Below, piece by piece: positions 1,889 through 31,461 of a DNA stretch of 64,000 nucleotides; position 1 is the first letter of the stretch, and each line of letters begins with the position of its first letter. Source of the DNA: Psammoneis japonica. Its lineage: Eukaryota. Location: the NCBI GenBank assembly GCA_008632985.1, contig QPGO01000015.1, forward strand, positions 435,998 to 499,997. The letters run 5' to 3'. The position numbers and the translations under genes were made by a program. The notes beneath the pieces are model-generated. The model saw only the letters and a list, made by a program, of their open reading frames with translations, did no database searches and had not been told where the DNA came from.

Positions 1889-1945
1889 TTTACTGTGTGC
1901 ACTTTGTGATCTTAATAATATGCGTTTTATCGAGAAATAACTGCT

Positions 1946-3791: not shown

Positions 3792-4042
3792 GTTGTTCAC
3801 TTGGATGTGAGGAGAGAAGGAATGATTTCTGTGAATCGAGAACACAGCCTATTGTCGAGAATTTTTTTGTGTCAGGAGAGAAGAGATGATATTATTTGTA
3901 AATCGAGAACACAGCCAATCGTCGATACAGTATCGAGGCGTTGTGTGCCTTCAGGCATCTATCCAAATACATACCACAACGCATTACACCACGAATTAAT
4001 TTGTGAGGAAAGAAATGTCTGCTGGTCATTTTAGGGCCCCAG

Positions 4043-4215
4043 TGCAAGCTCAAGCTGAAACTGATGTCAAAACAAAGAAGTGAGTAGACCGAAGAGAGGG
4101 CGGGGAGCCTACAGTAAGCGTTAGCGAACGCTGGCGAGCCTCTCTCAAACGGCTACGTTAATCTAATATCCAAAATTTATACTATATATCAGAAGCGTGC
4201 GAGTGAGTTGCTGCA
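4043..4215 (-). repeat. 3' LTR of the Gypsy element (173 bp)
   Basis: Direct repeat of 9333-9496, differing by two small indels (9 bp in total) and one substitution; adjacent to the PPT. Confidence 0.95.
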
Positions 4216-4338
4216 CTCTTCCCTTCCATGATCCGAAAGAACTAGAGGATCATGCAAAGGGCCAAAAACCAAGGACCAAAACCAAAAGTAAAGACAATAA
4301 CAGGAGGAAACCCAGATGTTGGGAAGAAAACCCCCTGA

Positions 4339-7300: not shown

Positions 7301-7831
7301 GACAATTCCGTGTTCGAAATCCAATGTGACACCCGCTCTCGCCAAGAAGTCCTGTCCAAGGATCATGTCACATTGGCAGGGTGAGTCAAACACATGCGCA
7401 TGCATGCCATCAACATGTTTGGTCTCATCAAATTCAGGGAGCACCAAGTCCTGCAGTCGAACATAACGAGTTGATTCGAATTCTCCTGCCATTGTCCCAA
7501 ACTTTGCACGAATCGGTCCTGTCTCTTCCAATGCTGGAACCGCTCCAACCGGCAACACCCGAGCATGAATCATTGAATGGGTTCCACCGGAATCAAGCAA
7601 CACCCGCATCACGCGCTTGCTTTCCTCATCTTGAATGAATCGTGCCACGAATGAGGTTGCAGGGACCACATTTAATGGTTTGGTTGGTTTTGTTTTTGGA
7701 GTTGGTGCAGCGCACTCAAGTCCCACATCGTCTTCGTCATTCACAGTGCAATTTCCGAAATCGTCATCATCAAATGAATCAGCAGCATGTGCATGACAAT
7801 CATCAATGCAGTCAGCACAATCATCAAACAT
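4339..7831 (-). pseudogene. Gypsy pol (protease, RT, RNase H, integrase), frameshifted, with Tyr codons converted to His/Cys
   Basis: Protease LLDSGG. RT DFRELN, TPFGK, (Y>H)IDD, FLGH. RNase H DASD, SRKL, TDHKNL, NVLADCFSR. Integrase HLVLGH..CADC, DLIGPW, NPQANAICE. GP(Y>C) motif. Confidence 0.9.
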
Positions 7832-7882
7832 GTGAGAATCAGGAGCGACACACTCGGACGACAGCTCTTCAAGCTCATTGGG

Positions 7883-9097
7883 TCAGCATCGACTGCGTCC
7901 CGAGAAGCGACCACCAGGTCGAAAACTTCCCGTTCCACCTCGATGCTCTCAAGGCCCTCCTGTCGAATCAAGATGATGGCTTTCAGCAGACCAATCATTG
8001 GGAGGAGCCGTTCTGGCCGGATTGCCGTAACCGCCGCCATCTGCATTGGTTCGGGTGTCGTTTTGACATTGCATGTAAGAGCCACCATCATCATGATGCT
8101 CGCCGCTGTTGCCGCCAGAGTCACAGTTTCCGCGACCACCGTAGTTTCCTCGGCCACCACCATGACCTTGACAGCCACGGCCTTGCCAACCACAACCTTG
8201 TGCTCCGCCATGACCACGACCTCCGCCTCGACCGCCACCTCGACTGCCACGGCCACCACATCCGCGACCTCCACGATCAGTTCTTGGACGGCAGTTGTTA
8301 GAATCGGGATTCATGACGCAATCTTTCCACTTGTGATTGTGAGCATGCAAAGGACATTGAGATTCTGGGTCAACACGATTGCCTTTCTTCTTGGTGGAGC
8401 CGCCACCTTTCGACTGTCTGTCTTTGCGCTTCTTCGAAGTCTTCTTGTTCCCATCTGCAAATGATTTCTCCGTGCTCATGCACGTGACAATTTCCGCTGA
8501 CGTGTCATTTCCAATCGTGCATCCTGCTCTTGTGCACATCTCGCGCCACGACAAAGGGAAGCCATCGAAGATCATCTTCTTCTTCTGGTTCTGAGTGACA
8601 ACTGGATTATTTCCCGGCAACTTGTTTGTGTGTCGCACCAAGGTCTCCATTCGATCCGCGTGTGCCTGCACTTCAACATCGTGTGGCTTTTTAAGAGAGA
8701 GCAAGTGTTCAATCATCGTGTCACGCGCTTCAGTTTCACAATGTGACAAATAAAAACGAGCCAATTCTTGGTCAAAACGAGCCACCGTCTTCTGCGCATT
8801 CGGAATCGCCATGGTGAGATTGGACCATTTGTCTTCAGCGGTGTCTGTCAACACTTCCTCGAAATCATCAAACAGTTCTTTGCCTGCAGTGAATTCAAGT
8901 TTTGCAGCCAGTTTACGAAAATGATCTTCCATGAACAACAACACTTCAATGCCATTGGTTCCATCAAAACAAGGGCACTTCTTCGCACGCGTGCTACCAT
9001 CATCATGCGATTGAGTCAATTTTGCAAGTTCCAAATCCGAATGAGCAAATTTCACAGCATGCAAAATGCACGGTTCTTTAAGGCTCTCGCGATTACT
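7883..9097 (-). pseudogene. Gypsy gag with zinc-knuckle-like motif and Gly/Arg-rich tail
   Basis: ORF 7949..9121 contains CPLHAHNHKWKDC and a GRGG-rich tract. In-frame TGA codons at 7949-7951 and 7883-7885. Confidence 0.8.
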
Positions 9098-9332
9098 CAT
9101 CAGGCCAAGTTGGTCCTCCAAGAAACTGCTTCAAGCACTCTACCTTCGACTCGAGTTGTGCAACCCGAATCGCCAAATCCTGTTCGCGTTGTTTTCGTGT
9201 CTCCTTTTGCCGTTTTTGTTCCAAAGCCCAACTCGCTGCCTTCGCTCTCAATGTTCTTTTCTCTTGTTTTGTAAGCCCATTGGTTGTATCGTTGTTTCTC
9301 ATTCAGCTCTTTACAATCGACTGTAATTACAG

Positions 9333-9496
9333 TGCAAGCTCAAGCTGAAACTGATGTCAAAACAAAGAAGTGAGTAGACCGAAGAGAGGGGAGCCTAAGC
9401 GTTAGCGAACGCTGGCGAGCCTCTCTCAAACGGCTACGTTAATCTAATATCCAAAATTAATACTATATATCAGAAGCGTGCGAGTGAGTTGCTGCA
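9333..9496 (-). repeat. 5' LTR of the Gypsy element (164 bp)
   Basis: Direct repeat of 4043-4215; contains a TATA-like tract (tactatatat). Confidence 0.95.
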
Positions 9497-10137
9497 CCCA
9501 GAGTCATTGTGACTTCACCTTTCACTCTCCGCCAAATGTCCGATATCCACAAGCTTAGGCTAGTGTGCTTCACCGCCACAAATTTCACGTACGTCGTACG
9601 TGACGTTTCGTTTCGTTCGTTCGTTTTGGTTCATTATTCTAAATTCCTTCTACTGTATGTAGTTACAATACCGGTACGCTTGTTTTGGTTTTTCTTGAGA
9701 CCATAAATTGCTTTTTAGGTATCGTCATTGATCGTGCAAAATCCTTCTAATTCGAATGTGAAAGTCCATCGTAAATGCGGTACTTGTACAGTAGAAGCAG
9801 TCACAATCGGGCGTCTGTTAATACCTGGTGTCTTGTTGATCAGAAAACCTTCTTTGACGCATATCAAGTCTAACCGTAACTTTCTAGGTCTTGCCCGTCT
9901 ACTTAGGAGCAAGGGCCTCCGAAAAACTGGATCACCCATATTCCAGTGCCATCGATCTCTTCTTGGCAAAATTCAACACATAATCCGCCATGCCGGCTGG
10001 ATAATGAAGAAAAGGAAGCACATTTGCTGTATGAACAAAGTCACATTTGCACAACTAAGATGTACTCTGCCGTATGGCAGAAACATTTGTCAACACTAGA
10101 CTACAGCATTTAAAATAATGAGAGAGCAATCGACTCT

Positions 10138-10983: not shown

Positions 10984-11336
10984 GTGCAGTACGATGCAAG
11001 AGAAGAGATGCAAGATGCAAAGCTTCAAAGTAAAGATGGAAGCAAGCGGCGCCGCCGCAGAGGAGAGTAATCGTGATCAGAAACGGATGCTTGTGCTCTT
11101 CATCCGTCTGTCATCATCGCATCGCATGCATACGTGCGTGAGAGCGCGCGTGAGAGTGCATTTCCACACAGTGCATCACCAATCTGGAACACCACTCACC
11201 GCACTCACCACTCAATCCTCAATCTCCGCCCTTTTTCTCAGTTGCTCACTTTTTCCAATGTGTCTTTTGGGTGCTTTTGTCTCTCCAACTTGCGAGGTTC
11301 TGTGATTATATTGGTCACTCTAACTACTATATAAAG

Positions 11337-13026
11337 ATGGAGAAGCAAAACGACGGAAAAGCCACCATGTCGGCAGAAGAAAAACACAAGGAGCTCATAG
11401 AGAAAATGACTGAGGCCAAGAAGCGTTGGGACAACGAAGATGACGAGGATGACACTGACAAGCTTTTATCCGAGGCCATGGAGCTTGCGATTCAGCAAGG
11501 AAAAGGGTGGTCGAAGGGAGAACGGGAGGAATACATTGCGAAAATTCTTGACGACGACTTTATACCCCCACTTTTTGCTTCAAATCAAGAAGATCTAGAA
11601 AAGAGTGGACTTGCGGATGCGTTTTCAACTCTGGTTTATGACGAAACACCGACACAGCTCATGCAGTCTTTTAAGAAGAAAGGAAACGAGGCATTTATGA
11701 ACGGAAAACGCAACGAGGCCAAGAATGTGCAGTACTATCGTGATGCAATCAATCACTACTACGAAGCATTTGCATGGGCCCAAAAGGTTGAACCAAAGGA
11801 AGACGGAATCACAGACACGGTTGCAGAGAATGACGATCCCCTGTTTACAGAGAAAGAGCTGGATGAGTTCAAGTCGACGCTTCTAGCCAATGCCGCCATG
11901 GCGCATATGCAACTAAAAAATTGGGGTTTTGTCAGGGACGACAGTAAAAGAGCGCTTCGCTTCAACGACCAGAATCTCAAGGCGTGGTATCGTCTTGCAA
12001 AGGCCTATCAGGCTCTACAGAATTGGGAGGAGGCAGGAGATGCTATCGACTCTGGCCTGGCCATAGACAGAAGTAATAAGGATCTCAAAAAGCTACAGAC
12101 GTTGCTCGAGAAACGAGTTACAAAAGCTAGGCAGGCACGACAAAAGCGAGAGCGCGCGAGAGCTGAACGAGTAGCACGGGTCAAGGAGGTTTGGAAACAT
12201 TGCAAGGAATCCGGTATCAAACTTGGACGCGTTCCATTAGTTTCCTCTGTCACAGACGAAGAGGAGGAAGATGGAGTGGACGAATCTAGATGGCATCAAC
12301 ATTATCCGCACACAGGCAGACTACCACAACAGAAATCTGGAGAATGGACGTGGCCGTGCATGTTTTTGTATCCCTCCCACAATCAGTCAGATTTCGTAGA
12401 ATTCTGCGGCGAATCTGAAATGATGGCAATGCGAATTGCAGACATGTTTCCCGAACTGGAAGACGTCGGTGAGGAGACAGCCATGCCGTGGGACTATAAC
12501 AATGAATTTGTTTGCAGTAACTTGGCAATGTACTTCGAAGTACACAGGACTGAGTCTGAGAGCGACGTCGTTCATCCTGAAAGCGTGGAAATTCTTATGG
12601 ACCAAGGTTCAACCATGCGTTTCTATGAAGCATCTCGTGCGTTGAAAGGCGATGAAGGACCTGAAATGGCCAATTTGGCTCGTGTTGTCGAGAGAAAGCA
12701 CCTACATAAGCAGCGAAAGGCGTGGAAGAAGAAGCACGGCAGTCTTTGGGCCAAGCCAGAACCGTGCCCTGTTGTGCGAGTCCATCCTGCCATGACTCTT
12801 AGAGATGTACTACTGGATGAGCGATTGGTTGTTCCAAATGTAAGAATATGCTCACTGATTGTTGTGAATGATCTTTTTGTTCGTGTCCTCATCCCATGAA
12901 CCCCTGATTCTGTCATCACAGTTTCTTGTCACTTTTCTCATTTTTCCGGAGCAGCATCCAGCTCACGACGCGTATTTGAATGAGCACAAGTGCATAGGTA
13001 TTTTGCAACCAAAAAATTTGGAGTAG
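11337..13026 (+). CDS. TTC4: TTC4/Cns1-like TPR Hsp70/Hsp90 co-chaperone with wheel domain; 2 exons, intron 12840-12921
   Basis: PLF motif, TPRs (FKKKGNEAF...AINHY; NAAMAHMQLKNWG; KAWYRLAKA), WPCMFLYPSHNQSDFV, PWDY..EF. The second exon FLVTFLIFP... ends at TAG 13024-13026. Confidence 0.85.
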
Positions 13027-13349
13027 ACGCAGGTTTCTGGAGGGTCGAAGGTGGCTACGATTGCGAAAGTACTGTAATTCTTCTAGTCTCCTAATATCTG
13101 CTTCGGGAGTAGCATGTAACAACTCATGAGCGAACCCATTCCATAGCTAGTATCTTTGGCGCCTGGCTCCTCGTTGTTAAGCATGTTGTCCAAAATGTGT
13201 GTAAGTTTGGGTGTGGGGATAGATGCAGCAACCTTAGCATGAACTCCTACGGCAAAATATGCGTAATTCTTCTAAGCCAGTTGCCATCAGAGCGCCAACG
13301 AACTCGCGCGTAGTCAACGGCCCCGTCCTCCAAAGTAGCCAGTACATGG

Positions 13350-15808
13350 TCAAGAATCGATTGTGTGAGATCTTGATTTCGAACAAGGCGCCTTCCTTGA
13401 GGCCGCACAAGGCGCAATTAGACTTTTGATGCCAACCGTTCCTTCCGTCTTTGAGTGATTCAAGAGAATCTGCTGGATCCCTGGTCGGTCTCGACAACCA
13501 CTGTGGATGTGAGGCCGGCATGAAAAGAAGGCCTGAACAACTAGCCAGTCTCCATTTTCACACCCGTGTTGATGACCCAGACCCAGAAAAATCCCTTCTT
13601 GTAACTTGCAAGACTTCTGACAGTTTTGAGCACAGACACATGATTGGTGGTTAAAAGCATCTGCCTCAAAAACTTTCATGCTGACGCACCCAAGAGTTTG
13701 AAGCGCACTTGATTGAATCTGAATGGGCCAAAACATGGAGCACACTGTCATGCCCCAATCAAAGATTGCAACATTCATTCCTTTCTGGTGGAGTGCAGAG
13801 CATGCAGCCACCACCACAACAAGGCCAGAAACACCATCCCCTGCATGCAATTGTGACTTTTGCATTGAGTTCAACCTTCAAAACTGTTTTGCTTGGGGTG
13901 TGACCTCACTTTTCTTAACTGCCTGTGCTGTCCACCCACTTTCTGCACTTCATCTGCTGTCTCTGGTGTTCTCAAGGGTCTTTGGCCTCACAGAAGCAAG
14001 CTTCCACAACCAAACTCACTTCTACATCAAAACATGATGAAGTGCTCAAGAGGACAAAACAAAAGCAACAGCGAGTCCAGTTGCCCTGCCACCATTCCAA
14101 GGAAACAAGCAAGCATCTGCTCAGTTGTTGGTGAACACAGATCCTGGAGACTTCTGTCTAATCATTCCACCCACCACACAAAAATGGTGTGTGCTGGCAG
14201 CAGGGGACGAGTGTCATGCCAAAAAGTGAAAAGTTCTTTCATGGCTTGCACACATGCTTCCACATCACAACACATCTTTGCTTCAATCACCAACCATCTG
14301 TTTGTCATCAATGCACATTTTGAACACTGTCCTTTGCACAAGTGCAGAGACTTCAACCAGCTCACCCAGCAACCATGAAAACACTCTCATCCCTCTGATC
14401 ATTGCCTTTCTTGGCTTTGGGACAATCTGCTTTTGCTCCTGTGGCACCCTGCTTTCAACATTTCCATTTGCTCTTCTTTTTGCAAACAACATGCCAATTT
14501 CTTGATCATCTTCATGGAGCTTTTAATTTGCTTTCCTTTGGATTTCTGCTCCCAACACATGTCAAAAATTGCAAAGCATTTTTGTGGCCATCTCGGGGCT
14601 TTTCATTCTCTGAGGTTGAACACACAGCCAAATTTCTTCTTGCAAACACCATTCAACAACACGGCGGGGCTCGACACTTGTTTTTTTTTTCAATGTCAGC
14701 AGCCCTGTCAGGCTCAAAGACATGCTGGCACTCCTTTTGGCCAGCCTCGTCATTGGCACAACTCCTCCACAAATCCTTTTCACAACCTCTGCCAAGCCTG
14801 TGAATTGCTTGCAGCAAGCCAACAGGTCCCAATTGTCCCCTTGCCTGCAAGGCAATGATGCCCTCCATTTCTTTGAAGCTTGAGGTGGTCTGGGCTTCTT
14901 TTTGTGCACAACATCTAATTTCTTTTTCAAGACACTGCAGCTCTTCTCCAAGCTTTCAACTCTGTTCAACGCAGACTTGTCACACCAGCTTGTCACAACA
15001 GTGAACACCTTGGCTTTGCAGTCAGAGCACCTTGGCTCATTTTTCACACACTGATTGCACCACTTCTTGCCCCAGATTGCCCCCTCTCTTTCCTCTTTCA
15101 CCACCAGTCTTGGGATGCTCAGGTTCAGAAAATGCCGTTTTTTGTGAAAGCAACACCAGTTTCCATGTTGTTGCTCTGTGCACACACACTTGACAACATG
15201 CTCAGCTGTCTTCTTGGCAGTGGTCTCATCACACTCATTGGCCCCAGCTCTGCCAGCTGCAATGGCTTGCTTGTGCACCTTCACAGCTGCTCTGTTGCCT
15301 CGCCAACTTGCTGTTTTTCATCTTGACTTGCTCACTTCTTTGAGAGCAGTGGCATTGTTTCCAAAGGAGATGACAAGCATCTCTTTCCTGTTGCTCATTC
15401 TTCAAACAGAGCATCAAATCTTCCCCAGCCACTCATTTGGCCAGAGCAACAAATCTCTGCAATGACTTTGTTGCTTCAGCCAGCTCAAAGGCTCCACAGT
15501 CATTGATGCACTGACAAAATTTTAGACTCCTCTTGACTTCCTGGCCAGCTCTTTTCAGCATGCACCAGCTTTTGGACAATGCACAGCCCCTGGAAACTCC
15601 TTCTGTCTGTTGAATCCACCACAAATGCAGCATGCTCTGACAGCCACACTGGCTGAGGGTTGCTGCAAAAAGCAAGAATTTTTTCATGGCTCACACATGC
15701 TTTCACATCAAACCACACATTTGCTTCAAAATTGCTGGCTGTCCCTCCACATTGTCAATTTACATTTTCCAATGTCAGCCATGTGCATGACATTGTGTGC
15801 TTTTCTCT
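13350..15808. mobile_element. Old degenerate repeat-derived sequence, family unassigned; left part of the domain interrupted by Copia
   Basis: Nearly devoid of both TpA and CpG, with many Cys/His-rich overlapping ORFs. Continues into 22890+ when the Copia element is removed. Confidence 0.5.
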
Positions 15809-16084
15809 TGACAGAAATTGAAGGCAAGTGGCAAGAATTCAAACAATGACTCCTTGCTGCTGTCTAAACAGCAGATGAGTCTCCGCTCAGAGACCGTCAC
15901 AGGAGCCAAAAGATGTGCAAGTCGGCACAATCGGGCTGCTGTTGTCATTCTTGTGAGCCTTGTGGCTCAAAAGCAAACTACATCGCGCGCGAACGCGCGG
16001 AACTAAAGCACACAAAACTGTGCATGGCAAACTAAACAGCGTGGGACATTTTGCGCGCACCCAAATCCTGTTCAAATCCTGTCA
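15809..16084 (-). repeat. 3' LTR of the Copia element
   Basis: Ungapped direct repeat of 22614-22889 (offset 6805). Confidence 0.95.
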
Positions 16085-19000
16085 CTCCCCAGTTTGCTTG
16101 AAGAGTCACAGAAACAGATTCGACTTCAGATGGAATGAAGTTCCAGAACATGAGGGGGCGGAGAAGGTCCCAGACTTGGGAGCAACCCCAATGCTTGCTG
16201 AGAATGTCAGCAGGGTTGCAGGAGCCTTCGATGAAGTGGAGCTCAAGGCAACCAGAGGCAATTGCCTCACGCACACGGTGGAATGACAGTGTGGTGTGTC
16301 GCTTGTGTAACTTGGAGTGCGGGATGGTGGCACTGTCTACAACCGACTTGTTGTCACTGAACATGCAACTGATGTCACGGATCGGGACGCTGAGGCAGCG
16401 CAGGGTGATGCGCAGGTCAACAATCTGCTCGACACAAGTCCTTGCGGCAACAAATTCAGACCCGCAGGTCGCAGTCTCCACGGTGGCTTGCTTCTTGGAG
16501 AACCAATCAGCTGGGAATTTGTTGAGGAAGTGGAGCATTCCCATGACAGAGCGTCCGGTGAGCATGCAATGGCACAAGTTTGCATGGACGCAGTGGGTGG
16601 CAGTGACAAACTTGCCAAGGGGTGGTGGAGCGTCCTTCAGGATCATCTCTTCTGCTTCGCCACACACGGAATGCATCCATTCACAGGCCGGAGCAGGGAG
16701 ATCCGAACAGTCGGGCTCTTCTGTGGGAACGCGGAGAGTGCCGTGTCGCATCTTGGAGAGGTGCCCACAGACGCGTTTGGCACGATCCAAGTGGCCTTGA
16801 CGGGGTGCAGCTCGGAAGCTAGAGAGTGACATGACGGCCGTGGCAATGTCAATTCGACCAAGGGACACTGCCCATTGGAGTGAACCAACAAGAGACTGGA
16901 ACTGTTGAATGCCATCGGGCCCCAGCAGTTCGGAAGTGTCCAGTTCGGGGTGGTCACCCTTCTCCAGAGGTGACAGGGCGTTGGTGGCAGGCTTCTCCCC
17001 AAACAGTCATGTGTGGCTGTTGACCATGCGTTCAATGCACTTGCGCGGAGACAGGCACAAGGTGCCATCAGGATCCCGGGAAAAGTCGCAGCCCAGATGG
17101 AACTCAATCGGTCCCGCACCCTTGAGCTTGAACTTGTGCTTTTCTGTGAGAGCATCGATGAAAGATTGAGGGTCCTTCATGGCAATGGCGAGGTCATCCA
17201 CACAAACGGCAATGCATTCGCAGTGGTCGCTGTTCCTGCGCATCCAAATGTCGGGTTCGGCGCGGCAGGGGAAGAAACCTTCAGCTCGCAGGCAGTCGGT
17301 GAAGCGCTCGTGCCAGCGGAGGCCGGAGCTGCGCAGTCCATGCAGGGCCTTGTGGATGACAAGAATGTGGCCTTCGAGTTTGACAAATTCGGGTCCAGCC
17401 ACAATGCACAGCTTCTCTTTGGTGGTGGCTTCAAGGCAGGCATTGCCAATGTCGGTGGCCCATGTCTCCAACTCGTTGAGTTCGGCCAGGAAAATCATCA
17501 GTCGAAGGCCACGGAGGGAGACTGCTCCGGAGTGGACACCATCGATGGGCACATCCGTGAGGTGCCCATTGGCTGCGAGTCGTGCCTTGTGGCGAACGTC
17601 GTGCACGAGGTGCACTCGGATCTTCTTGTGTCCCGCAGGAGGAGTGGAAGACTTGGAGGGCCCGCAGTCATGGAAGACTTTGTGTTCATCGAGTTGGTCC
17701 ATCTCGAGATTAGTTGCGTCTCCCCATTTGCGGTTGCCGTTGCGTTCGTCTGGTGACATGGCGTGTTTGTAGTTCCGGGGAACTTCGCATCCGCACTTGC
17801 AGCGAGGTGCAGTGCGGAAGGAGCGAAGCTTGGCTTGGTTGGCCATGTGGAACAGCTTCTTCTGGTGCCTCGCGATGGTGCGGAACCGCTTCCAGCCATC
17901 AGTGTCGAGAAGTCCGTTCTCTCGTGCACAGATGGCGCAGGTGACAGGGTCGTCCTTGGCGATGATGGCAAGAGGCTCGGACGTGATCTCCCCACTTTCC
18001 CATTCAAGCACAATGTTGTAGCTTGAGCCTTTCCAGGTTGGGTCATGAGGCTTCAGAGGTCCTTCGTGTGACACAATGCGTCGAAATTTCCAAACAGCAG
18101 TGTCTTTGTCTTCTTGCTCAATGTGATTCATGATGTTGTTGCAGGCCAGGACTTCCTCACATTCGTCGTTGTTGACAGAGCAGACGAACTCAGTGAGCTC
18201 GGGGTTGCCGTTCACTTTCCATTCGTGGTCTTCGACGGCCTTGACGATGCATGCTCTGTGGCGTTGTCCGTCCTCTTGTGGCTGCATGAGGAAGGTGCGT
18301 CCGATGATGTCTTGCGGATCGAAAACTGGCATCTTGGGTGTCCTGATCTCCCCATTGGGTGAATCGACGGGGTTGTCGTCATGGTGAGATTTGATGATGG
18401 GTTCAGGTGGCTCCCCATCAGGAGGATCAAGATGCAGGTTTCGAGTGGCAGGATCGGTGGCAGCGGATCGTACGTTGGACCGGCAGAGGATCTTCTGAGT
18501 CTCGTCAGAGAGCATCTTGAAGGTCATCTGGTGGCCGACGTGCTCAGCAATGCCAACAAAGCGTCCACGCAACTCACGGGATTCGGACGGCCAATCGGAG
18601 TCATCGAGGTGGAAGCACATGGGTTCCCACCAGTGAAAGCGAAGCAATGGGCTGATGTCCGGGGTGGAGCCAGTGAGAGTCTCGAGGGGCGTGCGCCAGT
18701 GGAGACGTGGGGACGCTGCATGGTTGAGTGTGAAGCACACACACATGAGTGCCAGCAGCCATGTGTGGGCAGGCGAACCGAAACGGTCCATGACAGTGTT
18801 TGCCACGCGCTTCACGGTCTGGTGTCGATGTTTGGCAAAGTTTTGGTGTTGCTGGTGAGGCTCACTTTGCCAGCTGGAGACAAAGAGGGCTCATAGGATC
18901 CCGAGCACCTTGTTGCTGATCTCAACTTGAGCACGGTTGCCAATGAGTTTGGATGGAGCACCACGCTCACGGATCTGATCCTCGAGTGTGTTGACAAACT

Positions 19001-21699
19001 CTTTGTCCATTTTGGTGCCGCAGACGTCAGTGACGGCAGACTTGGTGCCAACAAACAGTTGGGCGCTGGTGCAACCAGAGTCGACGGCCGGGGTGTCGGC
19101 ACAAATGGTGTCAGTGGCGATGGGCTCATTGCGGCGGTGCACATTAAGGGCGGGGTTGGGCGATTTGTGGGCCTTCTTAAGGTGGGCACCGGCGGGCATG
19201 CGGGCGCACTGCATGGTGCAGTCGAAAGTGCGACGAACCGCATCGGCAGGTTGGAAGCCAAAGCAAGACCGAAGAGACTCGCAGGGGGGGGTCCTTGGGC
19301 TGCACAGTGCGCTCCGGGGGCAGAACGTCGTCGTCCTTGGGGTCAATCGCGTGTGGATGACACTTGTGGAACACGTCGTCATTCGGAATGAGGTGGTCAT
19401 CAAGGGCGGACGCGTGATCGGCAGACAAGGAGGCGGACATGATGGCCTTGTTGACAACGACACGGTGACGGCAGTTGCTGCATTCATAAAACAGGTTGGC
19501 AGTGGGATCGTCCTGCAGGTCAGAGATCGCGTCGCACCACTGGTCGTCGTCAGTGACAGAGTGATCAAGGACGGAAGGATCCCATGTGTCATCACCGGCA
19601 AGGATGACATGGGGCAGGGTGTCCCATTCGGTGTCAGTGCAGGGTCGCATGGCAACATGAGGCAGGCCGCCCTTGATGTCAATTTGGATGACACAGCCAT
19701 CAGGGGTGGTGATGCGTTGCAAGCCGTTGGGCACCTTGACAGAGCGATCGTTGACATCATGTTTGTGCCATTCGAGCTGGCCACAGGAATGAATGGTCTT
19801 GCCCTTTCCCGTGCATGTGCACTGATGGAGGATGGCGATGACGGGACCACGCTGTGTCTCAATGACGGCACCAGCGGTGACAATGGGGATGCCCACCAAT
19901 TGATGGTTGTCAATGCCCTGAACGTCGACTTGGCGAGAGGTGCATGCAATGACGTGAACATCGTTGCCAGCAATGCCGCCGTTGGCTCCACGATCAACCA
20001 GAGCACCAGTGCATGTGGAGCAATGAGCGGAGGCAGAGCAAATGACATTGTGGTTGTCAACGCGGCGGCAAGTGCGGCTGTTGAGTTCCATGTCATCTGT
20101 GGGAGCAGGCAAGGTAGAGGGAGCAGCGGATGGGCCCGGTCGACTGGCGTTGGGGGCTTGGTGAGGAGACAACAGGCGTTGCAGATCACCGGGTGGCAGT
20201 GGCTTGTGCTTGGTGAGGTGCGCCAGAATGGGATTGTCTGAAGTGGCACCCACATTTGGAGCGGGGTCACCAGAGTCAGCAGGAATCGTGTTGGACAAGT
20301 TGACATCACCGTCACTCCCAAGTCGTTGGTCGTGAAGGTTGACCGCAACGGACTCATGGCAGTTGCTGGCTCGCGGGTTGCGGGGAGGCGGACGAGAATG
20401 CTCAAGGATGATCGCCTTAGAGGAATGGGGCAACGAATCCCAAATCCCAAATCCGTTGGTGGTCAGGAGGGAGACGTTTCCATTGGTCACCGGCGAGGCT
20501 GGGACCGCGGGTGCAGGCAGCGTCAGCCTGAAGGACGTCAATGTCGCTGTCGATGTCATAGAACACATCATCGGATGGTTCCTCAGAGTGGACGTCGTGT
20601 GCACACATGGCGCGTCGGGGAGCTCGAGGTGTCGTCTTGGGTTGAAACGTGCTGTCGCATTGAGCCGCCGTGGAGAGGAGCAAGCCACAACATTGATCGC
20701 ATGTGAGGCTCTTGCCACTCTGCGTGCGATGCTGATCAGCTTGGTTCTTGACGGCGCGGAGTTCCTCGACAGGATGCACGGCATTCTCGAGCACTTCTGT
20801 CCTTCAGAGAAGTGGTCACTGGCCGGGATGAGTGCCTCGTGCTTGCGCAACTGGTCCTGCCAATGAAGGATGAACCCGTGGGTCGGACCTTTCCAAGTGC
20901 CATCACCAAGGCGTGCGGTGGTGAGGTGCGTGAGCAAGGTGGAGGACTCGACAGATGCGCGGGTGGAGGCAAGCGCGCACTCGGACAAGGCGCGGCAGAT
21001 GGTCTGGGTGTCAGAAGACCCCACATTTTCGCGAATGAGAGCCTTGCCCTTGTCGGTGAGAAGGATGTGTTCAAAGACGGCGAACATGTGCTTTTGCTGT
21101 TCAGCAAAGAGCAGTTTGTCTTCGGGGCTGGTCGGTTTGTACGACGAGTCTAGAATGCACTTGACGTCTTGGGCACGGGCTTGTGCCACAAGTGAGGTGT
21201 GCCAAGTGTGCCATTGCTTGTCGGATTTGAGAGCCGTGAAAGCAGTGGGGTCACGCTTGATGCCTCGCTTGAAGTCTTGCACCGGGTCGCGTGCCTTGGT
21301 CGGGTTGGTGACATGCGGAGGTGCGAGAGGTGAGCTGCCGACGGACACAGAAGACATGCAGTCGGGACTGAGGCGGCAGGCAAGGAACTCCTCATGCGTG
21401 AACAATGAGGAGTCATTGGCAACATCAAGGCCTTCGTGTGCTTTGACAATGCACAGACTAACTGGAGCTGCCAACATGTTCTCACAACCTCGGGGCAATG
21501 GGATCACATTGGTGCCGTTGTCGCACTCAAGCGAGTCGATTTGGGAAGGTGTGAACGTGAACAGTTCTTGGTGCGAGTCCATGTCGTCATGGGTCAAAGC
21601 CAAATGAAGAGGGCTTCCAGCACCTTGGGCAAGTGCAGTTCCAACAACGTGCTCGAAACCATCGGTTTGTTGCTGACAAGTGAGAACCATGGCAGACAA
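16085..21699 (-). pseudogene. Copia gag-pol polyprotein, broken by several frameshifts, with Tyr codons converted to His/Cys
   Basis: gag FKRGIKRD. Protease ALVDRGANGG. Integrase IATDT..DTPAVDSG, FVNTLEDQIRERGAP. RT HKARLAANGH, DIGNA(Y>C)LEA, KAL(Y>H)GLRSSG, (Y>C)VDDL. RNase H SKKQATVETAT(Y>C)GSEF, DNKSVV, NPADILSK. Confidence 0.9.
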
Positions 21700-22613
21700 A
21701 AGCGGTGTCAGGACAAGCGATTCTTGTTGGGACGCGGAGGTGGACTTGAAACTTGAGTGGGAACAGACTTGACTTGAAATGGACTTGACTTGAAATCTTG
21801 AACCATCTTAAAATCAGAAGTCGCCGGGTTGTGCCACCCCGTTCATTGTTGAGTGCTGAACTTCCCATCCGGTCCGCAGAGTTGTGCCGGCAGGCCAGCG
21901 GCGCTTTGGATTGCTTGCGAGTGGAGCAGCGGGTTGCAAACCCCTGCAGGCAAGCTGACTGGAGGTGGACAAGACCCCAAAACCATTTCTCATTTTACAT
22001 TGGTTGGATTTCCCAATTGGGCTGGCCAGTTGACGCAGGCGCCAGGCGCTGTGGACGAACGAACAAACGTGGGAAAACACCCTCGCCCCAACGCAGGCTG
22101 CAATCACGGCTGCTTGCTCTCACAGTCGTCCTCGTGGACCTGGCAGAACTGTGGAGCACCAGAAGTCCGGGGCAGATCAGGTGCAATGGACTCGGTGTGC
22201 TTGTAAAGTGGCAGCAAAGCCGCAGTCCAAAGAGTGGGTGCAAGTTCTTGGCTGTGAAGATGTGGACACATGTGTGTCTTCAGCGACGAAGATCCTTGAA
22301 TGTGTGGGGTTCTTGACCGTCAACCGTTGAATGGGCACATGAAGGGATGAGGATCAAGGACAGACTTGGACATGACCGTTGCATGCATGTCTTCAGCGAC
22401 AAAAGGCAGCACAATCAATCCAGATGTCCAGCGGCAAGGAGACTTGACGGTGACGTTAACTTCCTGCCGATGCCTGGCATTGAATGCGCGTAGACTTGCC
22501 GATGTACGTAGAACATGTGCGGAGGTCCACGCAGAATTGAAAAGCGTCGTCAGTAAATCAACGACGATGATGGCAGTTGCTCAATGGGTTGACAATGAGC
22601 AAGACTGTTAATC

Positions 22614-22889
22614 TGACAGAAATTGAAGGCAAATGGCAAGAATTCAAACAATGACTCCTTGCTGCTGTCTAAACAGCAGATGAGTCTCCGCTCAGAGACC
22701 GTCACAGGAGCCAAAAGACGTGCAAGTTGGTGTAATCGGGCTGCTGTCATCATTCTTGTGAGCCTTGTGGCTCGAAAGCAAACTACATCGCGCGCGAACG
22801 CGCGGAACTAAAGCACACAAAACTGTGCGCGGCAAACTGAACAGCGCGCGACATTTCGCGCGCACCTAAATCCTGTTCAAATCCTGTCA
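22614..22889 (-). repeat. 5' LTR of the Copia element
   Basis: Ungapped direct repeat of 15809-16084. Confidence 0.95.
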
Positions 22890-22894
22890 TCTCT

Positions 22895-23032
22895 GGTCAT
22901 CAAGCCAAGAGAAAGGGGGTTGCAAAGGTGCACTGCAGGGCATGCCCATCCCCATGCATGACATTGTGGGCTTTTCTCTGGTCATCAAGCCAAGTGAAAG
23001 GGGGTTGCAAAGGTGCACTGCAGGGCATGCCC
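22895..23032. repeat. 85-bp tandem duplication at the Copia target site
   Basis: ggtcatcaagccaag.gaaagggggttgcaaaggtgcactgcagggcatgccc occurs at 22895 and 22980. The start of the first unit (catgacattgtg.gcttttctct) lies left of the element at ~15786-15808, which confirms the empty-site reconstruction. Confidence 0.85.
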
Positions 23033-25170
23033 ACTTTGAAGCAGGCTGGTTTCAGTTGTTTGCTGGGTTGTTGCCGCCACCATTGCATTGGAAAGTTGCA
23101 TGTTCTTGTGCACATTGACCAGAATCCCATAGATTCCCTGCCACCACCTTGGCTGTCAGCACTCCAATGACATGGCACAGTGCAAGCGACTCCAGTCCAT
23201 TGATGCAACATGTGGACGAGATGATCTGCCAGCACACACGCAATGTGCACAGCCGGACATGGACTCATGGTGTTGGCATGATGAAAACAGTCACTGGCAG
23301 GTGAAGCAATTGGGATGTGGGACTGGGCTTGGAATCGCCAGTGCCAAGCAATTGGTTCCCTTTTCACTGTGCACAGACCATGCTGCCAACTCGGAATGCT
23401 GCAAGCATTGATTGCGAACACGCCCATGTCATCGGAGGCAGAACCAACAGGAAAAAATCAACATCTGCACTCATGAGGGAAAAGTGACATGCTTCCCCAC
23501 ACGTGACATTTGACAAGAAGAAATGGATGAAAAATTGAAATTCGAAATTGAGACTTCACAAGCAGAAAAATGATGGTGGGCGAGCATTGTCACCCGGAGA
23601 GATCCACTGAGGGAAAGAAATGTTCAAACAGGCAGGTGGGTGACCAAGAAGGGCATCAGCACTGCCTTGTCAAGCACTCCACAATGTGCCTGAGAGAGAC
23701 CCAAGCAGTTGCAGAGACAAGCCATGAAGGCATTGGATTGCCATCTGAGCAGCCACACTGACATTGACAATGCTGGCAAGCACTGTTGCTCAAGGGAGAT
23801 CCATGATGAGCACATTGTGGACACAAACAGACAGAGAAACAGTTGACCAAAGAGCGGCATTGGTGCCGCTTTGCCAAGTGCTCTGCAATGTCCTGAGAGA
23901 GGCTCAAGGAGTTGAGAAGACGACATGAGCAGCCATCAAGCTCGCTGAGCTTTGATCAACTTGTGGAGCTCAAAAGGTGAATTCCCAGTGTTGTACGTTG
24001 CTCCCTCTGGATCCAGCACCTCACGCTTTGGCTGTAAGATCTTCAAAATGACAATTCTGCAGCAGGGCACCAGGCATCAAGATGACACAATCATCAAGAG
24101 CTTTAGCAGCCTCATGGGTTTGAGAGCACAGCTGGTGCAAAGGGAATGTTTGGATGGGGGTGGCCCATCAAGGTGGACAGAAAGCCATGTTGCAACCACA
24201 CACAAGATCTCTTGTGCTGCTCCCTCTGTGCTGCAGGACTGGGAACAATGAAGGCACCCACATCGGGAGCAGCAGCACCGGGTGTGTCCTCAACAGGATG
24301 ACAACAGAACTCAGTCCAGACTGGTTCCTCCTTGGATGTGGGGAGATCATCATCATCAGACAAGGGATGTGTTGATTGCATCAGGAAGAAATGGATGCTG
24401 TGTGGATCACATTGATCCAGGACAACTGGGCAGTGTTCCTCAAGCAGGACAAGGCACTGTGGCACAGCAGACTGCTGAAAGAACAAAATGGCATGAGAGC
24501 AAGCTTGGAATGTGCATGTGGAGAAATGGAGTCCTCCGGAAGCATTGAGCTTGTTCTCTGCCACTGAACAAGTGCACTCATCAATGTCACATTCCTGATC
24601 CCACTGGCAAAGCCACAGCAATGCCAATGTCAACAGGGTTGACCTCTGCCATGTCAGAACACACATGATTCAGGAGCGGACTGCTGTCAGAGCAATTGAG
24701 TGCATGAACCCTTTGGCAAAACAGTGGTGAATCAGCTGTCTGTTCCGGCCTTGCTCAGTCATTCACAGTTGACCAATTTGGGAGAGACTGGGAGACAATC
24801 TTTCTCCAATTCCTGTGCTCATCCATTGAATGAAGACAAGAATGAAGTTGAAGTTTTGTCCCAAGTGATGGGCCCCTTTCCACCACCATTCATCATTGTG
24901 ATGATGCAAGTTGTGAGGATGTTCAAGAGAACTCAAAACGTGGGTGTGAATTTTGCTGCTTGTTCCAGACCTTTAAGGTCTAAGTGAGTGTGCAAAGATT
25001 GGTGTTGGCCAGACAGAGTGGCAATTCCGACAGGGCATGTGCAGGCATGTGGAGCTGAACGCTGCACATGACAGAGGAAAAATGTTGGCCATGCTGAGGA
25101 AGCAGCAATGACCATGAGCCGCATGATGGCGTAAAAAGGACCTGTCATGGGCAACAAAGTGGGAGAGATG

Positions 25171-25562
25171 GATGGACTGGCCAAGAGATCCATGCTCATT
25201 TTGCCCGTTGGGGCTGAACAGCATCTTAGACCATGATCTGAGGATGTGCTCCTCATGGAAAGGCACCATTTGAGACAGTGTGGCAGAACAGTCAGAGTGC
25301 AAGATGATCCTCGGCCGCCAAAGCAGTCTCCACAATGAGTGGACCCAATCGGGATTTTAGAAACAGATGGACCAGCCAAGAGATCCACACTTGTTTTGCC
25401 CATGGGGACTCAGTGGTGCAGGACCATGATTGTGAGGATGTGCTTCTTATGAAGAAAGGCACCATTTGAGATGGTGTGGCAAAATGGGCCAGAGTGCGGT
25501 TCAATCCTCGGCCGCCGAAGTGGTCCCTGCAGTGCAGCAGACCCAATCGGGATTTGAGAACA
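25171..25562. repeat. Diverged ~195-bp tandem duplication
   Basis: Units start at 25171 and 25366 (gatggac..gccaagagatcca ... aaaggcaccatttgaga ... tcctcggccgcc ... gacccaatcgggattt). Confidence 0.8.
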
Positions 25563-26574
25563 TGTCCCCACATGAAGATGGCGCCACAATGGCACGACCG
25601 TGGTCAACACAAATGGGGAAAAAGGGTGGGAGGTGCACTCACAAGATGGCGCCAAATGGCATGGTGACAAACAGCGCCAATGCACTGGACACTCCCAGCT
25701 GTGCAAGCAGACTGTGCATGGGATTTTTTGTTGACTGACAGGGAGAGGAGAGAAAGCCCATTCAACCCTCATCGTTGGCATCTCCTTGGAGATGCCTTGA
25801 CAGTTCCATGGTGTCTCCCAACCTGCCAGACAATGAGGGATCCCTTGGGCTGGCCTTGTTTCTTGTTTCACTCGCTCATCTCGTCCATCGTCCATCCATC
25901 ATCTCCATCCATCATCCTTCTTCTTCACCCGTTCTCCTGCTTTTGCATGGCGTGACTCTCGGTCCAGCCAAGGAGGTCCTCTCCTTGCTGGGCTTAGCCA
26001 GAGTCTTGGCCACGGCCATTGTCATCGGCCCAAACACACAGCCTGAGGCATTGGGAGGTCATTTCCACCTTTCCACCACTTGGCCACATGCATGTGTCCC
26101 ATGTGGCACCGCCGGCATGGAGAGCCGGGCGTGGCGTTGTTTGGGCCGATGGCAAGACCGCCGATCTCTTTTTCCGTCCATGCCCGCCATGTGTTGAAGT
26201 TGAAGCTGCGCCGTCTGACTTGGGGCTTCATGACGTCATTTACATTTATGGATTCGTACAAGTGCTACAAAAACTCATCAGCACTGCAGAAATCTTTTAC
26301 TCTCTGACTCTATGTAGAATTCTAAATTTTCGATGGCGTGAATTCCCGCGCGATTCCCTGGGCGATCTAAGGAGTTCAACTTGCAATGAAGATCGTGGTC
26401 GCGTGGCCACGTTCAACCACGGTGAAACCAGCTGCAACCACAAAGATTGCCTCAAGCCTATGCTTGAATGTGAAAACACCTGGTGCGATCGTTGTAATTG
26501 CCACGAAGCAAACGGCCTGCGAGTACCTTAACCGCTCTTCAGATTTACAGTTGAGATCGATGACGATTCCAACC

Positions 26575-28194
26575 ATGAAGAAACGTGGGCTTTGTCAACC
26601 AAGGATGGCTGCTGCCGTTGTGCTTGCCTTGTCATTGTCGAAACCAGGCAGAACCGATGGATTCGTCCCGCAACACGTTCACCACCCATCCGTTAGACAG
26701 GACAACGAGAAAGTTGCGCAGCACGTTGAGCTGCAAATGTGGGATAGCAAGCACTCTGATGCTCCGTCGTTCTTGCATGATGCTGCCAAGTTTGTAACCA
26801 CAGTTGCTGCTACTGCGGCGATTTCTGCCGCTCTGGTAATCCCGGGAAGCGCTTTCGCCGAGGACGAGTTGGCAGCCAAATACGGGGGGAAGGGATTCGA
26901 TTCGTCCCTTGTGGATCAAACCTGTTTGGTTGACAAGTGTTCACTCCAGGCAAAAGCGTGCTTGGCAGATGATCCTTCTTGCAGAAAGGGATTGACGTGT
27001 ACCGCCAAGTGCTTGGGAGACAACGCCTGCATCACTGGATGCATGGCCCGTTATGGGGATAAGAACCTCGACAACCTTCTCAAGTGCACGATTGAAGACA
27101 ATGAATGTATCAAGGTTGCCATTCTAGATGGCGGCGCAGACAAGTTTGGAGAGGAACCCAGGGCTCCTGCTCCATCCGTTAGAAACTTTGACCTTAGTAC
27201 GATGGAAGGCACGTGGTACAAGGTTGTGGGGTTCAACCCGAACTACGATTGTTATGCTTGCCAAAGAAACACCTTCAGCCAGCCCGAAGGCGGTGGTATT
27301 TTCAAGGGCGATAAACTCAAAGTAGATGTGGAGTTCTCCATGCCTCACCTCATGCCAGACGGCACGCCGCCTCCACCGAAGAATATGCGGGAATCCATTG
27401 ATATCCGAGAAGAGGACGGGGCTTTGGTTGGGTCGCAGTCGATAGGCTTCAACGATTACGAGACTCATGAGACTATGGTATTTGACTCTGCAAAGCCAAG
27501 TCTGCCCAACCTTGTTCTCGGGAAAGGAACAGACAACGAAGCCAACTATGCCAGAACGGCTCATTCAGAGGGAGAAATGTTTGGTTTAAGTAAGTCTTCC
27601 CGCGAGTCTCTCGAAAGTCGCCTTGTATGTTTCTGAAATTATCTAATATTGTCCTTTAACATTGATATTTCAGAATTCTGGGAAAATTGGTACATTATTG
27701 GTCAGAACGACCCTGGTCAAGACGAGTTCAAGTTTGTCTACTACAACGGCAAGACCCGGCAAAATACTTATGAGGGTGCTTTTGTTTATAGCCGAACTCG
27801 GGACCTCTCAGCAGAATCTATGAAGAAAGTCTACAAGATCGCATCTGATGCCGGAATGAACCCGGATCAATTCTGCAAGATCCGGAATGGATGCTTCACG
27901 GACGAAGCTGGTGCCAACACTCCTGGCGGCAGCATTGGAAGTCCATCGAACCCTTTCAGATCAATTCTGGCTAGCACAAAAGTGTCGCAACTGCTTGGAG
28001 TCGAGCCAGTAGCAGCCCAAAGTGTCACTAAGCGCCAGGCAGTTGCTGCCGAGCTCACACCTTCGCAAGGTGAATCAAAACGAGCATGGTGGTATGAAGT
28101 TGGGGATTACCTAGAGAATCCTCATCGACACTTCCAAGCTATGGATAGTCTGAGAACGACCATGGATTGGCCAGAGGAAATCAAGAGTCAATGA
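26575..28194 (+). CDS. VDL: Violaxanthin de-epoxidase-like (VDL) plastid/thylakoid protein; 2 exons, intron ~27590-27674
   Basis: Signal peptide ending TDG-FVP and a second hydrophobic lumen signal ending SAFA. Cys-rich domain CLVDKC..QAKACLADDPSCRKGLTCTAKCLGDNACITGC. Lipocalin motifs GTWYKVVGFNPNYDCYACQRNTF, ENWYIIG, VYYNG..RQNTYEGAFVYSR. Confidence 0.85.
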
Positions 28195-29710: not shown

Positions 29711-30986
29711 ATGGCTCAAAATCCGTTGCTTGGTGAGTTTCAAGAGAGTGAAAAATGCTGTTCATTGAAATGTCTTTTCTACGTGATGTTTGTACTGGAA
29801 CGTAGGTGCGCAGTATTTTTGGCCAGACTTGAGAGGGAGAAGTCAATGCCAAAAGCATGAGGACATAGCGATCATTTGAGAGGACTTTTTTTTTGTCGAT
29901 ATTAATATTTTGTATGGGATGCTCTGGAGAGTTTTAGTAACGAGAGAACCATTTCCAATTTGTTTTTGCTGACGCTGTTTGCTTATTTTAATTCACCTTT
30001 CTCGCTACCTCCAGGTAATCGCATCTCGCTGATATCCAAGAAGAACATACGTTATGAGGGAACGTTGTACTCTATCAATCAGTCAGACTCTACTGTAGCG
30101 CTTCAGAACGTTCGATCTTATGGTACCGAGGGGAGGGAATCGCAAGATACAACGGGCAACACGAACTTTGTTCCCCCCAACGACACGGTTCATCCCTATC
30201 TATTGTTTCGAGGATGCGATATCAAGGACTTGCACGTACACGAGACCGTACAAAAGTCAGAAGCACAAGAAATAGAGACAAGAAACAGAGGTAAAAACCG
30301 AGGAAAATCAGGCGCCGCAAGAGACAGAGTCTGCTCCGCAAGAGAAAAAGGAACCGGAAAAGGAAGAGAAACCAAAGAGATCGAGTAGAAAACCGAGATC
30401 CACCCATCAGGTTGGCACGGGCGCCAGCCTTTTGAATAGAAAGGCACGAGGGGTAGTAGATGGAGGAGTTGAAACTCCCTCGGACGACTTTGATTTTGTT
30501 TCTAGCTTGGCATCATTCAACAAGACTGAAGAAGAACAAGGCGAAGAGGAGGTTTCGGCTGATGGACCTTCTGCGTATGAAAAGGATGACTTTTTCGATT
30601 CCATTTCCTGTGATGTTTTAGATAAACAGGCTGGAATCGACAACCGTCTGCGAGGAAGGGAGGAACGAAATCTAAACACTGAAACCTTTGGGGCGGTAGC
30701 TCTGAATTCACAACGAAGAGGAGGGCGTCGATACCGAGGAAGCGGCCGAGGTAGAGGCCGCGGTAGAGGAAGAGGACGGGGTGGTCGAGGAAGCGGTAGG
30801 GAAGAGGACCAAGGCCTAGAGAAAACAATCGTTGGAGACGAGAGGCATCGGGTAGTGGGCAGAGTCAAGGTGGCAGCAACAGACAAAGCCAAGGCGGAAG
30901 TGAGTCTCGGCAATCGCAAAAGGCAACATAGCGGAGTCTTCAGTCGAGGTGTGGTCGTTGGGATGAAATCCTCGACCACATCTTGA
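29711..30986 (+). CDS. LSM14: LSM14/Scd6/RAP55 mRNA-processing-body protein; small first exon at 29711-29732, apparent frameshifts
   Basis: The exon MAQNPLLG is spliced (GTGAGT...CCAG 30014) to the Lsm domain NRISLISKKNIRYEGTLY...VRSYGTEGR...LFRGCDIKDL. It also has DFDF, FFD and TFG boxes and RGG repeats. Frame changes occur near ~30275 and probably ~30800, so the true stop may be near 30931. Confidence 0.85.
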
Positions 30987-31461
30987 TCATTCAACGAGAT
31001 TCACTTTGGAGAGGCTATTCATAAGCTCCAGGAAGTGGAGTGTGAACTTGTTCGCATCATCAGCAAGTCAATATTGATAATCTATATCTTAGCAATTTCG
31101 TTGCGTGGTCCTTTCATTTTAATTCCTGTTTTGAGTCCGTGTTTCACTGCAGATACGGTAACATTTGCAGTGTCATGTAGCTCCATTTCACTCACTAGCT
31201 ATTCGAGAGTAGCTGAGGGAACAAGTATCCATAACAAGTCTTACTCTCTCCAAAATAGTAGGTCCGGTACCGGTAGGTAGGTAGGTCTTTCAAAATCCTT
31301 GGTCTGTCCATCCGTGCCCGCTGTCATTTTGACACGAATGCGTTGAAACCGTCAAATAACGGTGGCATCCGAGTGGCAGACCGACGGCACGTGAAAAAAA
31401 GCAAGACAAAGAGCGTATCATAAGAGCGGGACGGCCACGATCGATCCACACACCCGTCACC

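Follow-up and report, generated by a model that had tools for sequence, protein, structure and literature searches.

In fungi, the host itself mutates mobile DNA by repeat-induced point mutation (RIP), which introduces numerous transitions at a single dinucleotide and leaves its mark on base composition; C is converted to T at CpA, which creates TpA and stop codons. The ADAR enzymes, which to our knowledge are confined to animals, hyper-edit double-stranded RNA from A to G with a preference for a 5' U and a 3' G. APOBEC3 proteins of vertebrates deaminate C to U on minus-strand cDNA, giving G→A changes on one strand. Dead retroelement copies are left behind by this deaminase-type hypermutation of retroviruses and LTR retrotransposons (see PMC4866542). 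The closest described system was reported in a 2026 preprint on the chlorarachniophyte Bigelowiella natans (Mettrop et al., 10.64898/2026.01.13.699255). According to the accessible part of that preprint, 231 of 302 new nuclear mutations in mutation-accumulation lines fell into two integrated viral regions, and 230 of these 231 were A→G or T→C changes, every one of them on the dinucleotide 5'-TA-3' (TpA). The mutation rate was about 1000-fold above that of the rest of the genome, the effect was seen in only 11 of 15 lines, 324 TpA-depleted coding sequences were enriched in reverse transcriptase (RT) and DDE domains, and an ADAT2-like adenine deaminase acting on DNA was proposed by the authors (10.64898/2026.01.13.699255). 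By our calculation, the figures of the preprint (211 mutations, 6169 TpA, 3132 generations) correspond to about 1e-5 per TpA per generation. Here, a 64,000-nucleotide stretch of the diatom Psammoneis japonica (assembly GCA_008632985.1, contig QPGO01000015.1, positions 435,998 to 499,997 of the forward strand), referred to as the window and numbered from its first letter, was analyzed. It carries on its minus strand a complete, dead Ty1/Copia long terminal repeat (LTR) retrotransposon (15809-22889) in which conserved tyrosines have been replaced mostly by cysteine and histidine, and TpA-specific hypermutation by the host probably explains this pattern. The process is of a known kind, described in that one preprint, and is met here in another major lineage and in targets of another class, whose LTRs are largely spared. 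No report of TpA hypermutation in diatoms was found in the openly accessible literature searched, diatom papers included.

The original prediction had described a Tyr→His/Cys signature in a Copia element at 16085-21699. The signature was recovered, while the span turned out to be too short, as LTRs extend the element to 15809-22889, with target-site duplications on either side (15804-15808 and 22890-22894). All five altered motifs lie on the minus strand exactly where they had been placed: DIGNACL (17433-17453), KALHGL (17334-17351), CECIAVCVDD (17193-17222), ETATCGSE (16455-16478) and LRCL (16392-16403). In the third of these, for which the consensus of the relatives is YEYIAVYVDD, a TGT (Cys) codon (17202-17204, minus strand) replaces the Tyr of the YVDD box. 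The predicted Tyr counts also held (0 in the RNase H frame, 2 in the integrase/RT frame), with frame lengths slightly different from the predicted 278 and 602 aa (324 or 266 aa, and 627 or 594 aa, counted from stop to stop or from the first ATG). In the three long Copia frames, 0 of 324, 2 of 627 and 2 of 876 residues are Tyr; Tyr makes up 0-0.3%, His 4.9-6.1% and Cys 3.8-4.3%, compared to medians of 4.1%, 3.4% and 1.2% in 120 related proteins.

For a column-wise comparison, the RT and RNase H frames were aligned to 59 homologs, i.e. the first 60 of the 120 by identifier minus the low-Tyr protein P0041; the RNase H frame aligns to their C-terminal part. Consensus-Tyr columns were altered in 33 of 35 cases compared to 103 of 652 other consensus columns (Fisher p 8e-23), with Cys at 20 of the altered Tyr columns, His at 8, Phe at 4 and Trp at 1. 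The 11 consensus-Tyr columns of the RNase H frame yielded 8 Cys, 1 His and 2 Phe. When only columns with at least 80% consensus were considered, Tyr was altered in 20 of 21 and other residues in 41 of 430 (p 4e-18), and Trp (15/15), His (18/18), Asn (13/13) and Gln (10/10) were fully conserved. Tyr is thus far more substituted than other conserved residues. Nor are Cys and His the norm at these places in relatives: across 80 related loci from metagenome contigs, Tyr was present at a median of 86% of 29 positions. Both outcomes that would have refuted the original prediction were thus looked for, and neither was seen.

As a refinement of the original interpretation, it is the dinucleotide TpA that is hit, whichever codon phase it occupies and also outside codons, rather than the Tyr codon as such. 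Over positions 16032-21807 of Copia the observed/expected ratio (o/e) of TA was 0.07, with values of 0.98 for AT, 1.04 for AA, 1.09 for TT, 1.68 for CA and 1.39 for TG. The RT frame contains 3.2, 1.6 and 1.6 TA per 1000 codons in phases 1-2, 2-3 and 3-1, and medians of 41.7, 49.9 and 57.5 were obtained for the relatives (34 with open frames of the 40 tested). Relative to these intact sequences, TA is thus 10-30-fold rarer in all three phases. Five host genes in the window have 19-27, 26-41 and 27-50 TA per 1000 codons in the same phases, and TA o/e in the matching region of the 80 metagenome loci ranged from 0.35 to 1.05.

Along the window, 1-kb segments fell into two groups with TA o/e of 0.03-0.16 and about 0.35-0.82, and three segments at 0.22-0.35 straddle block borders. 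The TpA-poor regions scored comprise 25.9 kb of the 64 kb and contain 4.6 TA per kb versus 40.0 elsewhere. The lost dinucleotides can be followed into their products. Background DNA holds 40 TA, 56 CG and 141 CA+TG per kb, and in blocks where about 35 TA and 37-48 CG per kb are missing, CA+TG amounts to 217-233 per kb; by arithmetic on these window counts, the gain of CA+TG equals the loss of TA plus the loss of CG. The GC content is 0.55-0.59 in Copia versus about 0.48 around it. Strict TpA specificity, TG and CA as products, hits on both strands, in all codon phases and in non-coding DNA, and sharp borders are thus common features of the affected DNA. The ratio of Cys to His outcomes was 20:8 in Copia (p 0.036), 9:8 in the second element described below and 29:16 when pooled (p 0.07), a strand bias too weak for use.

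Flanking bases matter, as ATAT is always lost and TTAA is often retained. Among 127 surviving TpA none stands in ATAT and two stand in ATAC/GTAT, contexts that account for 8.8% and 15.9% of TpA in 79 relatives, and TTAA is 2.8-5.1-fold enriched. The stop codons TAA and TAG together occur 3.4 times per kb in TpA-poor DNA versus 18.3, and open reading frames (ORFs) of at least 100 aa number 36 versus 22 per 10 kb. Such long frames on both strands result from the near absence of TAA and TAG, since TA→TG/CA makes no new stops; the sole possible change of this type that ends in a stop is TAA→TGA. In Copia alone (16000-22000), 17 ORFs of at least 150 aa were counted on both strands and in several frames.

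The same signature was found in a Ty3/Gypsy LTR retrotransposon on the minus strand (4043-9496; Pfam RVT_1, RT_RNaseH and Integrase_H2C2), with LTRs at 4043-4215 and 9333-9496 and the target duplication CCCAG at 4038-4042 and 9497-9501. Measured against 30 relatives chosen from 150 listed, each with one long match, its consensus-Tyr columns were altered in 19 of 19 cases (9 Cys, 8 His, 1 Phe, 1 Trp) compared to 57 of 256 others (p 4e-12). At a resolution of 100 bases, seven TpA-poor stretches were delimited (1-900, 4301-8200, 8101-9300, 13401-22500, 22701-26200, 40101-45800 and 47601-49800) and merged into six parts, made up of five gene-free blocks and the two elements. Block borders are sharp within about 100 bases, and blocks end just before host genes. 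Two superfamilies of transposable elements (TEs) and gene-free blocks are therefore affected, while host genes, which form long, intron-poor frames, are spared; TpA was normal in all phases in the five checked. As the Gypsy element, non-coding DNA and RT-free blocks share the signature, the preference of the original prediction for a host process over an RT-specific error bias is supported.

One of the gene-free blocks is older than Copia, which was inserted into it. Its left half (13401-15803; TA o/e about 0.05-0.08, CG o/e about 0.2) and its right half (22895-26200, ending about 170 bases before the violaxanthin de-epoxidase (VDE) gene) are both poor in TpA and CpG. The flank 13339-15339 has the depth of unique DNA in run X1 (67-78) and is single copy in the contigs of that run, one of which (4856 bases) covers 10992-15815 with 3 differences. 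The other blocks lie at 40101-45800 and 47601-49800, both also CpG-poor, and at 1-900, where the block is truncated by the window start. The gene-free TpA-poor blocks gave no Pfam hit for 99 ORFs, tblastn with 11 Copia and Gypsy proteins found no pol remnants outside the two elements, and an Atlas search with 14565-15317 returned no match.

In several respects the window resembles what the accessible part of the B. natans preprint describes (10.64898/2026.01.13.699255): TpA is the only target, TpG and CpA are the products, both strands are hit, and only foreign or mobile DNA is attacked while the host is spared. The long-term trace is in both cases a depletion of TpA with a gain of CpA and TpG, and a single-copy region can be a target. 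In contrast to that rhizarian, the host here is a diatom and thus a stramenopile, and the targets are LTR retrotransposons and gene-free blocks close to saturation (TA o/e 0.07-0.13 versus 0.45 in the region of nucleocytoplasmic large DNA virus (NCLDV) origin). Sparing of LTRs and a preference for flanking bases were seen here and do not figure in the accessible account of B. natans.

Compared to RIP, the window likewise displays a host process that scars mobile DNA with transitions at one dinucleotide. However, a RIP test (C→T at CpA, gain of TpA, AT-rich product) failed: TpA is destroyed, GC is raised, and no new stops arise. In addition, unlike in RIP, one of the affected blocks is single copy, so that the trigger may be something other than duplication. 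An APOBEC-type test (plus-strand G→A, gradient) failed as well, as the changes are A→G and T→C, or A:T→G:C, on both strands, without a gradient, and reach RT-free DNA; the common ground with APOBEC3 is the dead retroelement copies. The A→G change and the 5' preference recall ADAR. Unlike the loose preference of ADAR, the requirement for T here is near absolute, with a 3' T most mutable and a 3' A least, and editing of sense RNA cannot yield changes on both DNA strands.

These features would be accounted for by a host process that converts 5'-TA-3' to TG or CA, the A of TpA undergoing an A:T→G:C transition on either strand, and that is directed to mobile elements and to other DNA without genes while sparing the genes of the host. 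The adenine preceded by T would be deaminated by an enzyme that is TadA/ADAT2-like or of another deaminase type, in line with the proposal for the identical signature in B. natans. Proteins would be ruined through missense with the reading frames remaining open, since TA→TG/CA turns only TAA into a stop. We infer that the process acts on DNA, is enzymatic and serves genome defence. Chromosomal DNA is favoured as the substrate by the hits on both strands, the attack on RT-free and single-copy DNA, the TA-type differences between LTRs and the experiment in B. natans, and we hold with moderate confidence that the process operates in the chromosome after insertion. The chances that the chemistry is adenine deamination by a TadA/ADAT2-like enzyme appear about even.

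Several observations weigh against this interpretation. TA is its own reverse complement, so attack on A and attack on T are inseparable by sequence. The LTRs have suffered far less than the interiors, which a process acting simply across a whole chromatin domain would not predict. In Gypsy the LTRs have a TA o/e of 1.10 and 1.03 compared to 0.13 in the interior (p 6e-14), with 13 and 12 TpA in about 170 nt each and 43 TpA in 5.1 kb of interior, and the shift occurs within about 100 bases of the LTR edges. In Copia, the older of the two insertions, the values are 0.23 in the 3' LTR and 0.31 in the 5' LTR compared to 0.08 in the interior (p 0.001). Finally, the 42 best-supported differences from family contigs (of 919 variable places) include only 5 of TA type in the Copia span, 2 of them with TA in this copy, which hints, from these 42 places, that most TA losses are common to the copies of the family and older than their spread. 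LTR sparing may reflect a process guided by transcription, by small RNA or by the chromatin of the element body; alternatively, helper proteins may have spread copies that were already mutated but had intact LTRs.

The LTR pairs bear on the timing. The Gypsy pair differs by 1 substitution and one indel region, with zero TA-type differences, and marks a young insertion. The Copia pair has 16 differences, of which at least 5 are TA/TG, TA/CA or CA/TG, 7 are of CpG type and 2 are neither; the at least 5 of TA type indicate that some hits postdate the making of the Copia LTRs. About 92% of the interior Copia TpA is gone, while the LTRs differ at just 2 places that are neither CpG nor TpA. Extra TpA is retained in the about 160 bases after the Copia 5' LTR (6 TpA, in the untranslated leader at 22457-22613, minus strand) and near both interior ends of Gypsy.

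LTR sparing, complete in the young Gypsy insertion, and the extra TpA at these interior ends are what would be expected if, much as APOBEC3 or ADAR do, a deaminase edited genomic RNA and/or single-stranded cDNA prior to integration. Copies would then arrive mutated, and LTRs and leader, exposed as single strands for a short time only, would be spared. In HIV, APOBEC3 editing reaches its minimum just past the primer sites. We nevertheless consider this alternative unlikely. Editing of minus-strand cDNA alone would lead to His and editing of RNA alone to Cys, whereas both outcomes were obtained in Gypsy and in Copia. A gradient of Tyr→His from 5' to 3', which is predicted, was sought along Copia and none was seen; His is no higher towards the 3' end, where the last 10 pol Tyr sites have become 8 Cys, 1 His and 1 Phe. 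Depletion is just as strong in blocks that lack an RT remnant, including a single-copy one, and the Copia LTR pair differs at TA sites. In B. natans, according to the accessible part of the preprint, the signature arises in chromosomal DNA of integrated DNA viruses (10.64898/2026.01.13.699255).

The palindromic nature of TA also leaves room for the same targeted process with thymine chemistry, in which a modified T in TpA of silenced DNA (of the 5-hydroxymethyluracil or base-J type) mispairs or is mis-repaired to give T→C; such a change on one strand has the same products as A→G on the other, and 5-hydroxymethyluracil of dinoflagellates favours TpA. Evidence for a modification of this kind is lacking here, and we know of no case in which oxidised thymines yield near-pure transitions at such a rate. 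In tRNA, the natural substrate of TadA/ADAT2 is an A that follows a U, a preference that fits the TpA motif directly, and thymine chemistry therefore seems rather improbable. An artefact of assembly or base calling at modified bases in repeats is more improbable still. Systematic miscalls at modified motifs do occur in some long-read assemblies, and run X1 may be the source sample of the window itself and hence not independent; however, X1 contigs (depth about 60-67, up to 315 kb) differ from the unique TpA-poor flank at 3 places over 4.8 kb, and three relatives from other sources (P0041, P0050 and L001, see below) carry the same signature. That the family is natively poor in TpA, through avoidance of UpA in RNA, or that the RTs of the elements themselves err in this way, is scarcely credible: UpA is under-represented in many genomes (host background here 0.6), but conserved Tyr was lost at 33 of 35 places, that of the YVDD box among them, none of the 80 related loci has a TA o/e as low as that of Copia, the Gypsy LTRs are TA-rich and the interior TA-poor, and the signature is common to two superfamilies with unrelated RTs and to RT-free blocks.

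Extending the favoured interpretation of host-driven hypermutation of TpA in the chromosome, we tentatively propose that diatoms may possess a RIP-like defence of opposite chemistry, in which a TpA-specific DNA adenine deaminase (ATAT best, TTAA worst) would be aimed at element bodies and not at LTRs. As element bodies are targeted and LTRs are not, it might be guided by transcription, small RNA or body chromatin rather than by repetition. As the same signature is found in a chlorarachniophyte, it might be old and widespread in the SAR (stramenopile, alveolate and rhizarian) supergroup. A bolder corollary would be that elements that are TA-free and protein-dead but whose LTRs are intact are no longer attacked and go on spreading by means of helper proteins.

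In searches that favoured intact sequences, two of 60 proteins and one of 80 loci carried a partial signature. P0041 has 3 Tyr, 11 Cys and 8 His at 27 positions and P0050 has 14, 5 and 6 at 32; the locus L001 (643-2165; TA o/e 0.35) has 10 Tyr, 9 Cys and 3 His at 23 positions. Judging from their sequences, all three look like further mutated copies rather than active elements, and the process is probably present in other organisms too. A saturated trace in diatom retrotransposons would mean that it is neither an oddity of a single species nor restricted to integrated viruses, and as diatoms are genetically amenable, both enzyme and guidance could be tested. Consequences for annotation and dating also follow. 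The near absence of TAA and TAG opens false ORFs in all six frames, so that gene finders would take dead TE genes for intact ones. Ages derived from LTR divergence are distorted by TpA and CpG sites, which are hypermutable (14 of the 16 Copia LTR differences are of these types). TE-rich regions turn GC-rich and Tyr-poor by mutation, not selection.

The assignment to Ty1/Copia follows from an RVT_2 domain, the order integrase, RT, RNase H and a 5-bp target duplication. The RT frame matches Pfam RVT_2 (E 4e-19, 69.5 bits, cut-off 31.6); the Copia frames gave no match to Pfam rve (integrase), and in the consensus of the relatives an integrase-core-like stretch precedes RT. The 5' LTR (22614-22889) and the 3' LTR (15809-16084), both on the minus strand, are 276 nt long, start with TG, end with CA and are 94% identical. 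They are directly abutted by the duplication TCTCT, the same 5 bases at both ends (15804-15808 and 22890-22894). From 5' to 3' on the minus strand follow the leader, a gag/protease frame (19177-21807, 876 aa), assigned by position only and without a Pfam match, the integrase core (18894-19304), which is in the same frame as RT, the integrase C-terminus and RT (17010-18890), and RNase H (16032-17006). Residues 13-1065 of an intact relative (P0010) form one tblastn alignment with 19304-16140 (58.8% identity over 1063 residues), from which the integrase core was delimited and which crosses two in-frame TGA stops. One lies between RT and RNase H (17007-17009, minus strand), where the alignment runs straight through. 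The other lies within integrase (18891-18893, minus strand) at an Arg position of the relatives (consensus ...DILRxLxIxxWQSEPH versus ...GIL*ALFVSSWQSEPH in Copia), a CGA→TGA change of CpG type. A single frameshift near 19180-19300 joins gag/protease to pol, and beyond this frameshift and the two stops Copia carries no other frameshift or in-frame stop.

The RT frame has 471 homologs, the best with 62% identity, and the named ones include the diatoms Fistulifera and Nitzschia. In its RVT_2 domain, the integrase upstream of RT, the 5-bp duplication and the diatom origin of its closest named relatives the element resembles the CoDi (Copia of diatoms) retrotransposons. The best relative found is just 62-67% identical. 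A term search of the text of a paper on CoDi elements found no mention of hypermutation, deamination or dinucleotides (PMC2806351). In run X1 the Copia family is very highly repeated: summed contig depths over 15340-23343 reached 52,000-113,000 compared to 60-78 for unique DNA, and 1,900-3,350 in Gypsy bins, values that mark high repetition and are not copy numbers. One X1 contig joins 16084 to 21714 and represents an internally deleted Copia copy.

The block at 40101-45800 includes a tandem repeat (41644-42514) with a unit of about 186 nt in about 5 copies of 70-84% identity. Three of the copies have 7 sites with CA in one and TG in another, the mark of independent hits on an ancestral dinucleotide; such discordances, here as in the LTRs, do not separate a TA from a CG ancestor where CpG decays, nor chromosomal from pre-integration editing. 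CG o/e is 0.05-0.4 in the gene-free blocks versus 0.6-1.0 in the two LTR elements, which suggests a second, slower decay through CpG methylation and deamination in the older silenced DNA of these blocks. Those CpG→TpG/CpA changes that only this Copia copy carries are concentrated towards the 3' end of the element (16000-16750 and the LTR at 15809-16084), adjoining the CpG-poor flank. Of the 8 interior T>C differences at TG among those listed, 7 lie there, and 6 of the 7 CpG-type LTR differences lie in the 3' LTR. It looks as if methylation had spread from the CpG-poor neighbour into the Copia 3' end.

No deaminase was found among the window ORFs in the Pfam scan. The host genes recognized in the window encode JmjC (1949-2503), TPR/Wheel (11154-12896), VDE (26371-27633), FDF (30276-30983), syntaxin 6/10/61 (31360-32412), COG4 (36725-39172), Dus (45911-46798), RlmN-like radical SAM (50802-52817), NAD-binding (53263-54294), Fer2 (58071-59378) and CRAL-TRIO (59454-60992) proteins and U3 snoRNP protein 6 (62863-63714). 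The VDE protein is 70-81% identical to those of Ditylum, Helicotheca, Eucampia and Odontella.

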